From Escherichia coli (lineage in GTDB: Bacteria; Pseudomonadota; Gammaproteobacteria; Enterobacterales; Enterobacteriaceae), in assembly GCF_022846255.1 (NCBI RefSeq), contig NZ_AP025682.1: a stretch of DNA of 64,000 nucleotides. One strand, given 5' to 3'. The notes below the pieces were generated by a model. That model did not search any database. It saw only the letters and a program-made list of their open reading frames with translations, and was not told where the DNA came from. A program made the translations under genes and the position numbers. This document shows positions 12,615 through 12,897 of this stretch, one piece after another. Each line of letters opens with the position of its first letter. The first letter of the stretch is position 1.

Positions 12615-12880
12615 AGAAGTTCCTTACACATAAAAAAAACGGCCAACGTCGGAAGACGTCAGCCGCTGCTTTTTATGCATAGACCTCGCCTTCCGGCAAG
12701 GTCTCACTTACAACAAAAAAGGAATACGTCTGCGTATTCCTTTCGGGTTGCCCGGTGACCGGATGTGGTTTTTCACACATCGTAATGACGATCGACCGGC
12801 AATGAAGTTACTCCCCTTTGCAGGTAACAAAGTATGACAGACCATTCAGTCAGTCAATGGTCTGTTACATACCTTTTACA
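12615..12880 (-). promoter_or_regulatory. alx 5' leader: pH/Mn-responsive riboswitch-type element (PRE, yybP-ykoY class) with terminator-like expression platform
   Basis: About 280 nt of non-coding leader. On the transcript strand a 10-bp hairpin (12664..12641, GGCUGACGUC-UUCC-GACGUUGGCC) is followed by U8 (12639..12632) ending 6 nt before the SD. Class assignment rests on prior knowledge of the alx leader, not a covariance search; 5' boundary approximate. Confidence 0.55.
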
Positions 12881-12897
12881 CTGTTTTACTTTGGCAA

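Follow-up and report, generated by a model that had tools for sequence, protein, structure and literature searches.

In transcriptional yybP-ykoY riboswitches, such as those of L. lactis yoaB and B. subtilis yybP/ykoY, an Mn2+-stabilised P1.1 helix prevents the structure that permits a terminator and its U tract. In Escherichia coli, a small RNA (sRNA) of ~189 nt, SraF, was first detected upstream of alx and was later characterised as a cis-acting riboswitch, the pH-responsive element (PRE) (PMC9472077); the element was subsequently recognised as an Mn2+-sensing yybP-ykoY riboswitch (PMC12153347, PMC9472077, PMC10197570, PMC12934788). Two intrinsic terminators at ~nt 110 and ~190 have been described in it, together with hairpins P5 and P6, a P5/P6 helix and occlusion of the ribosome-binding site (RBS) (PMC12153347). 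In the inactive fold, P5 and P6 are present and the RBS is paired with the disrupted P1.1/L1 strand, and in the active fold the P5/P6 helix is formed (PMC12153347). Alkaline pH raised a translational reporter 68-fold and Mn raised it 21-fold, and Alx was reported to be an Mn2+ exporter (PMC10197570). Here, we analyzed a 64,000-nt stretch of E. coli DNA (RefSeq assembly GCF_022846255.1, contig NZ_AP025682.1; hereafter the window), in which an initial annotation made from the sequence had placed, at positions 12615..12897, an alx leader ending in a hairpin next to the ribosome-binding site. We conclude, with a probability of roughly 0.93, that this region is the 5′ leader of the alx mRNA, namely the alx riboswitch (PRE) already described as responsive to Mn2+ and pH, whose terminated product is the sRNA SraF.

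The hairpin in question, P6, is the published second terminator, "hairpin D"; the observation was thus correct but already known in detail. The biology adds nothing new, as studies of the alx riboswitch go back to 2009 and papers up to 2026 cover the aptamer, both terminators and the P5/P6 switch. Our analysis describes the anatomy of the leader, its mutually exclusive pairings, its conservation and its covariation; the responses to Mn2+ and pH, the efficiency of termination and the output at the level of translation are taken from the literature. The 283 nt at 12615..12897 constitute the complete intergenic region between ygjR and alx, the ygjR stop codon lying at 12898..12900. A megablast search with 12560..12960 found this region between the same two genes in 5419 of 5426 complete E. 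coli genomes; the top match was an O157:H7 strain with 100% identity, and the window is O157:H7-like. The initial annotation had given the leader as 283 nt, a length that fits the intergenic region and not the transcript: the transcription start site (TSS) is probably U12822, which would leave a transcribed leader of ~208 nt. This assignment is based on consistency with the residue numbering of the published alx papers, since only with this start do the published residues A11, C36, A37, C58, C73/A74, A137, U177, G183 and U184 fall on the right bases, and the published termination sites at ~108-110 and ~190 then fit as well. RNA positions (nt) below are counted from U12822, and feature coordinates are collected in Table 1.

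The core of P6 is composed of the 5′ arm GGCUGACGUC (12664..12655), the loop UUCC (12654..12651) and the 3′ arm GACGUUGGCC (12650..12641), which form 10 unbroken pairs, 8 of them Watson-Crick and 2 tandem wobbles (U12661·G12644 and G12660·U12645). The "perfect 10-bp hairpin" of the initial annotation is therefore uninterrupted, but perfect only if G·U counts as a pair. With 13 pairs in the full stem, 7 of them G-C, a 4-nt loop and a U8 tract, the structure has the G+C-rich stem-loop and U tract of an intrinsic terminator. On the minus strand, the leader ends 5′-...AUGCAUAAAAAGCAGC-GGCUGACGUC-UUCC-GACGUUGGCC-G-UUUUUUUU-AUGUGU-AAGGAA-CUUCU-AUG-3′. The U8 tract is followed by 6 nt (AUGUGU), the Shine-Dalgarno sequence (SD) AAGGAA, CUUCU and the start codon, whose A is nt 18 past the U tract, exactly the spacing that had been noted at the outset (12639..12632, 12625..12620 and 12614). 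The hairpin alone folded at -19.9 kcal/mol (z = -5.5; none of 200 shuffled sequences was as good), and the extended P6, whose base carries the helix up to the SD, folded at -29.6 kcal/mol (z = -6.3). Over a 271-nt region, the folding z-score was -8.7, and 3 terminator-like sites were found in 700 nt, compared with 0.6±0.7 expected. In single-round transcription in vitro, termination at D (~nt 190) was 13% at pH 7.2 and 10% at pH 8.5 and survived a chase (PMC9472077).

The predicted folds of the two states clarify the relation between this hairpin and translation. The minimum free energy (MFE) fold of the leader (-97.0 kcal/mol) corresponded to the published OFF state, with P3/L3, P4, P5 and P6 extended to nt 197; in this fold, AAG of the SD (nt 198-200) paired with C16-U18 and ACUUCU (nt 203-208) paired with G8-U13. 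P5 and the folded aptamer are mutually exclusive, because the 5′ arm of P5 is the 3′ strand of L1/P1.1. When the 3′ strand of P1.1 was withheld, the MFE fold of the nascent RNA from nt 127 to nt 173-186 was the antiterminator, 128-136:165-173 (-23.5 kcal/mol), in which 138-141 also paired with 159-162 and A137 formed a 1-nt bulge. The published active conformer likewise has this residue bulged, and the inactive conformer has it paired (PMC12153347). As this P5/P6 helix uses up the 5′ arm and the loop of P6, it is predicted to be both antiterminator and anti-sequestor. In the modelled OFF fold, P6 does not itself sequester the SD and would instead act as a scaffold adjoining the pairing of the SD with the freed aptamer strand, and stacking in this state may be the reason that the hairpin abuts the SD. 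Of the earlier proposal that the hairpin either terminates transcription or sequesters translation initiation depending on folding kinetics, the terminator and the kinetic control thus stand, while the SD is not paired by the hairpin itself.

We then examined whether these pairings are maintained in other species. An Alx-protein scan with one genome per species yielded 80 loci (Escherichia, Citrobacter, Salmonella, Klebsiella, Enterobacter, Kosakonia, Erwinia, Pantoea, Serratia, Yersinia, Rouxiella and others), and 71 aptamers and 81 platforms (the P5/P6 region) were aligned. Across the loci, GGGGAGTA, TCATTAC and GAGACC recurred at similar distances, as did a T tract ~24 nt ahead of the ATG. 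A hairpin of -10 kcal/mol or lower with a T tract was present in 77 of the 80 Enterobacterales alx loci, the end of the tract lying 13-45 nt (median 16) from the ATG; by eye, the alignment showed the A-rich tract upstream of P6 in Escherichia, Klebsiella and Pantoea, whereas the Serratia rows lacked it.

For P5 and P6 together, 93.9% of alignment cells were paired and 11 pairs were changed on both sides, compared with 2.9±1.2 in shuffled alignments, and sliding the register reduced pairing to 21-49%. P6 alone was paired in 95.4% of cells with compensatory changes in 6 of its 13 pairs, and the two helices of P5 were paired in 81.8% and 96.5% (81 platforms in each case). The antiterminator was paired in 96.8% of cells and had 21 double-change cells, compared with 4.2±1.7 after shuffling and with 50-71% pairing after register sliding; compensatory changes affected 4 of its 8 pairs. 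These include pairs that join one loop to the other, such as G130-C171 (G-C in 59, A-U in 12) and A132-U169 (A-U in 70, U-A in 5). In Citrobacter, the P5 loop is GAAU and the P6 loop AUUC, compared with GGAA and UUCC in E. coli. The P6 loop was at least 90% conserved, uncommon for the loop of a plain terminator, and such a loop has no reason to covary with the loop of another hairpin. The compensatory changes between the P5 and P6 loops across 80 species thus provide independent comparative support for the published antiterminator helix. Synteny, sequence identity, folds and covariation together place the locus in the alx-type (PRE) subclass, with the orthologous position, the aptamer, P5, P6 and the P5/P6 helix all present.

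Upstream of this platform, RNAalifold recovered a three-way junction from the 71 Enterobacterales leaders, consisting of P1.1, L1, P1.2, the junction, P3.1, L3, P3.2 and P4, with compensatory changes in 13 of 30 consensus pairs. The parts are P1.1 (nt 2-8/122-127), L1 (GGAGUA at nt 9-14 and GAGA at nt 118-121) and P1.2 (ACUU at nt 15-18 and AAGU at nt 114-117), followed by a 4-nt junction, "L2", that replaces P2 (nt 19-22), then P3 with L3, and P4, whose length was highly variable. The sequences GCAAAGGGGAGUAACUU and GUAAGUGAGACCUUGC were invariant in all 71 leaders and fold as P1.1/L1/P1.2. The L1 signature of Mn riboswitches (5′ GGGGAGUA, 3′ GAGA-CC) is found between P1.1 and P1.2, and an asymmetric L3, the 7-nt one-sided UCAUUAC, lies between P3.1 and P3.2, both of which covary. 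Within L3, G36-U-C-A and A-C-G were invariant in the 71 sequences, in agreement with the published alx-type consensus UCAUUAC, which differs from the family consensus ACAUACU. In the consensus fold, only 4 variable nt (CAUU) separate P1.2 from P3, so that a four-way junction with P2 is absent, as in the published description of the alx aptamer as a three-way junction with an L2 capping loop instead of P2 (PMC12153347, PMC12934788). A37 is the published Mn2+ contact residue, and its substitution A37U abolishes the response; single-molecule Förster resonance energy transfer shows docking with Mn2+ (PMC12934788), and the crystal structure of a chimera carrying the alx L3 is available (6CC1; PMC12153347). 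As expected for an Mn riboswitch, the gene downstream encodes a protein of the TerC family (Pfam PF03741, E = 1.3e-53), labelled "TerC family membrane protein Alx" in RefSeq, so that the family assignment of the initial annotation agrees with both.

P4 contains the first intrinsic terminator, B, which folded at -14.4 kcal/mol (z = -5.9) and for which 43-46% termination at ~nt 108-110 has been reported in vitro (PMC9472077). This terminator was not universal: a T-run near -105 to -127, following P4, was listed for ~12 loci, including four Escherichia-like ones, and the Kosakonia, Klebsiella, Pantoea and Serratia rows have a short or different P4 without such a T-run. Judging from these alignments, the 43-46% premature termination at B in E. 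coli may be lineage-specific.

The aptamer was not recognised by the Rfam family model that the initial annotation had suggested as a check. RF00080 (Rfam 15) gave no match in the window at the gathering score (45 bits), and slices of 501 nt and 141 nt remained without a match at E≤10; 19 further alx loci from Enterobacterales were likewise negative at the gathering score. A local match of 8.1 bits (E = 1.2) was obtained with the Kosakonia alx aptamer, which has a short P4, and covered P3/L3 only. Low-scoring matches to STnc370, STnc240, SSRC10 and miRNAs were rejected as generic hairpin or terminator look-alikes far below the thresholds. As a control, we used the E. coli K-12 mntP leader (locus L002, 8261..8700), which also scored below the gathering score, at 41.6 bits (E = 5.6e-10). 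The RF00080 alignment to mntP scores the L1 5′ strand, the P2 hairpin, P3 with L3 ACAUACU, and P4; its consensus contains no base-paired P1 and ends after P4. A riboswitch feature was annotated neither at alx in the two RefSeq records inspected nor at mntP in NC_000913.3. Since even the bona fide mntP aptamer falls short of the gathering score, the silence of RF00080 is weak evidence; as alx has no P2 and a variant L3, it reflects a sensitivity gap of the model for the alx subclass and not a missing aptamer.

We also built an alx-type covariance model, R1, from the 71-aptamer alignment. With default filters, R1 did not find mntP; with the filters off, its best match in the mntP leader was the mntP aptamer, at a weak 6.5 bits (E = 0.13), in register over P1.1/L1/P1.2 as GGGGAGUAGCC[79]GGCGAGACC. 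The initial annotation had held that its riboswitch call would fall if a covariance-model match and an alternative antiterminator pairing were both lacking. The match is lacking, but an antiterminator pairing is present, which covaries and gives the MFE fold of nascent RNA, and the proposed pH- and Mn-responsive yybP-ykoY control of alx is the published riboswitch at this same locus. A negative Rfam scan would thus have wrongly refuted a correct call, and the current Rfam 15 model fails to detect the alx-type three-way-junction subclass.

These elements can be combined into the following mechanism. Transcription would start at about 12822, and the first 127 nt would fold into the alx-type yybP-ykoY aptamer, a three-way junction whose L1 and L3 loops would dock around Mg2+/Mn2+. 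Without Mn2+, the weak P1.1 would open and its 3′ strand would be captured by P5, after which P6 with the U8 tract would form and a fraction of polymerases would terminate there. In the full-length OFF RNA, the extended base of P6 would stack on a pairing of the SD and spacer with the freed 5′ strand of L1/P1.2, so that the ribosome would be blocked. With Mn2+ bound, which would be favoured by alkaline pH, P1.1 would hold and P5 could not form; the P5 loop and 3′ arm would then pair with the 5′ arm and loop of P6 as the P5/P6 antiterminator, P6 would be prevented, and the U tract and SD would remain single-stranded, allowing alx to be translated. The choice between ON and OFF would be made co-transcriptionally, with the ON state far from the equilibrium minimum.

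Several points weigh against this interpretation. RF00080 is absent from the alx scans and the R1 match to mntP is weak. The Mn- and pH-dependent changes of the platform reported in vitro are only small (PMC12153347), and termination at D changes little (PMC9472077). The SD partner in equilibrium folds was heterogeneous across species (MFE and partition function, 69 leaders). Moreover, the ON state is not predicted thermodynamically: enforcing P1.1 alone left P6 in place in equilibrium folds, and the enforced ON state (-77.6 kcal/mol) lay ~19 kcal/mol above the MFE. A simple equilibrium switch was rejected, as the antiterminator was seen only in nascent-length folds or when enforced. Given the ~19 kcal/mol between the states and the survival of P6 when P1.1 was enforced, the decision must be co-transcriptional, which is consistent with the reported need for native RNA polymerase (PMC12153347) and with pause sites located shortly upstream of terminator D (PMC9472077).

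The non-conserved SD partner in equilibrium folds is one argument for an alternative in which the leader is mainly a transcription-attenuation riboswitch, Mn2+ drives antitermination at P6 and RBS occlusion is secondary or specific to the E. coli lineage. We regard this as unlikely, although the conserved relay of three hairpins (P1.1/P5 as anti-antiterminator, P5/P6 as antiterminator, and P6 with its U tract as terminator) would serve equally well as a transcriptional attenuator, and deletion of the PRE raises transcriptional output, the authors stating that the PRE affects both transcription and translation (PMC10197570). Published measurements in E. coli nevertheless point to translation as the principal output: just 10-13% of transcripts end at D in vitro, with hardly any effect of pH (PMC9472077), transcription changes much less than the 68-fold and 21-fold of the translational reporter (PMC10197570), and the field classifies the alx riboswitch as translational (PMC12153347, PMC12934788). 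Because the relay of P5, antiterminator and P6 is deeply conserved and covaries while the SD-occluding pairing is not conserved in equilibrium folds, Mn2+-dependent antitermination at P6 could be the ancestral and most widespread output of alx-type leaders, with the RBS-adjacent placement and translational control as a later overlay; we consider this evolutionary scenario doubtful as well.

Far less probable is a constitutive terminator that yields a stand-alone, trans-acting sRNA, SraF, without any switching role. An sRNA of ~189 nt was what was originally detected, and terminated products at nt ~190 are real (PMC9472077), but the covariation of the P5 and P6 loops is not required of a plain terminator, the RNA was later characterised as a cis-acting riboswitch, and most polymerases read through D in vitro (PMC9472077). 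We give slightly less credence to the original PRE model, cited in PMC9472077, of a ligand-free pH sensor in which alkaline pH prolongs RNA polymerase pausing and redirects folding, the yybP-ykoY resemblance being incidental. The missing Rfam match would agree with it; however, later kinetics showed pauses shortened at alkaline pH, not prolonged (PMC9472077), the leader responds to pH only if Mn is bound, a response that A37U abolishes (PMC12153347, PMC12934788), and all 71 sequences share the same L1 core, which is in register with the L1 of mntP, albeit in a weak model match. The least probable of these alternatives is a DNA palindrome or bidirectional terminator serving the plus strand and unrelated to alx control. 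The upstream A tract and downstream T tract do make the hairpin roughly symmetric, and its plus-strand version folds (-19.5 kcal/mol, z = -4.8). However, the extended helix is 10 kcal/mol more stable on the sense strand, because the G·U pairs hold on that strand only and become A/C mismatches on the plus strand; many of the covariation changes likewise pass through G·U intermediates valid only in the alx sense, and the plus-strand open reading frames (ORFs) across the interval are only short, mechanical ones without annotation support.

Table 1. Positions of alx, its promoter and the elements of its leader in the window (nt, RNA positions counted from U12822; CDS, coding sequence).
Feature	Position	Strand	Details and basis
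alx CDS	11649..12614	minus	321 aa, TerC-family membrane protein; ATG at 12614; ORF list, Pfam, RefSeq annotation
SD, spacer and start codon	12612..12625	minus	SD AAGGAA 12625..12620, spacer CUUCU, start AUG 12614..12612; ORF list and sequence
Extended P6 base (OFF fold)	12626..12680	minus	AUGCAUAAAAAG (12680..12669) pairs with U tract and AUGUGU (12637..12626); MFE folds
Intrinsic terminator D/P6	12632..12667	minus	stem 12667..12638 (13 bp; core 10 bp 12664..12641), loop UUCC, U8 12639..12632
Antiterminator (P5/P6 helix), 3′ half	12650..12658	minus	CGUCUUCCG; nt 165-173; end of P6 5′ arm, P6 loop, first nt of 3′ arm
P5 hairpin	12681..12704	minus	nt 119-142; MFE fold; published P5
Antiterminator (P5/P6 helix), 5′ half	12687..12695	minus	CGGAAGGCG; nt 128-136; P5 loop and start of P5 3′ arm
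Mn2+ aptamer, alx type	12696..12822	minus	nt 1-127; RNAalifold consensus and published three-way-junction model
First intrinsic terminator B, in P4	12715..12744	minus	12-bp hairpin 12744..12717, U6 12720..12715; terminator scan
L3 metal-binding loop UCAUUAC	12782..12788	minus	nt 35-41, A37 = 12786; within P3 (12752..12799); unpaired in consensus fold
alx sigma-70 promoter	12829..12857	minus	-35 TTGACT 12857..12852, 17-nt spacer, -10 TACTTT 12834..12829; read from sequence

The genes around the leader form a minus-strand row composed of sstT (10081..11325), the 321-aa ORF (11649..12614), a 334-aa ORF (12898..13902) and a 230-aa ORF (13963..14655); the neighbour upstream of alx is a Gfo/Idh/MocA oxidoreductase according to Pfam. 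A 45-aa minus-strand ORF at 12708..12845 was considered as a leader peptide and rejected, as its ATG lies upstream of the TSS. The promoter elements TTGAC and TAyTTT were kept at fixed spacing in the 19 genera inspected. At 12837..12865 (minus strand), the alx -35 hexamer lies within a 10-bp inverted repeat, ACAGACCAUU-N9-AAUGGUCUGU; after the repeat comes CAUACUUUGUU, which includes the -10 element. The repeat folds at -13.8 kcal/mol (z = -3.6), and compensatory changes in its arms are seen in Citrobacter, Salmonella and Enterobacter (ACAGGCCAU...AUGGCCUGU; CAGACC...GGUCUG). The repeat probably serves as the ygjR terminator and shares its sequence with the alx promoter; a protein operator is a less probable alternative.

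Elsewhere in the window, the Rfam matches that passed the gathering score correspond to ordinary features of E. coli: a Sib antitoxin RNA at 55224..55373 (plus strand, 142 bits), an FMN riboswitch at 58840..58988 (plus, 121 bits), the naRNA4 derived from repetitive extragenic palindromes (REP) at 47234..47304 (plus, 83 bits) and a tRNA at 34821..34893 (minus, 73 bits). In Salmonella enterica subsp. diarizonae, an STnc310 sRNA-family match (81 bits; L014, 2190..2250) directly adjoins the 3′ end of alx but is on the opposite strand.

Several of the surveyed species carry insertions or deletions in the leader. In E. whittamii and E. albertii (L004, L005), a ~150-nt insert resembling REP or bacterial interspersed mosaic elements is located in P4, ~100-300 nt upstream of alx; the P4 terminator hairpin is duplicated on both sides of it and the remaining leader is intact. 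REP arrays are also found in P4 of L023 and L050. Repeats resembling enterobacterial repetitive intergenic consensus (ERIC) sequences (...CAGGAGCTTAC...AAGTAAGTGACTGGGGTGA...) are present in the riboswitch of Siccibacter (L017), Phytobacter (L028), Erwinia persicina (L045), Rouxiella silvae (L072) and Serratia grimesii (L078). Two of them sit in P4 (L017, L072), one separates L1 from P3 (L078), one separates the U tract from the SD (L028), and one interrupts the 3′ arm of terminator P6 (L045). In Atlantibacter subterranea (L035), the L1 5′ strand (GCAAAGGGGAGUCACUUCC) is joined directly to the 3′ part of P5; P3, L3, P4 and the L1 3′ strand are lost, and P6 and the U tract are kept. In Rouxiella aceris (L073), the P6 hairpin and U tract are all that is present, behind an unrelated upstream gene. 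These REP and ERIC insertions and aptamer deletions are natural test cases for what the switch tolerates.

Among known systems, the closest is the E. coli K-12 alx riboswitch (PRE/SraF), which shares with the window the locus, promoter, aptamer, terminators B and D, P5, antiterminator and RBS, and whose numbering maps exactly. Compared with K-12 MG1655, the window shows 3 differences in 401 nt, namely substitutions at 12850 (promoter spacer) and 12768 (P3.2 hairpin loop) and one additional T in the U tract after hairpin D, which is U8 in the window and U7 in K-12. No functional difference is expected, although a longer U tract could slightly raise termination.

The E. coli mntP Mn2+ riboswitch (RF00080; crystal structure 4Y1M per PMC12153347) has the same L1 core, GGGGAGUA...GAGACC, with P1.1/P1.2 flanks, and both leaders have an asymmetric L3 with a conserved A in P3, a reported Mn exporter downstream and a translational ON response to Mn2+. 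They differ in that mntP has a four-way junction with P2, L3 ACAUACU, no internal terminators and no pH response, whereas alx has a three-way junction, L3 UCAUUAC, two intrinsic terminators and pH-tuned Mn sensing. The transcriptional yybP-ykoY riboswitches of L. lactis yoaB and B. subtilis yybP/ykoY follow the same logic as alx, with the terminator as their main output; in alx, a weak terminator (10-13% in vitro) is separated from the SD by 6 nt, and translation is the chief output measured.

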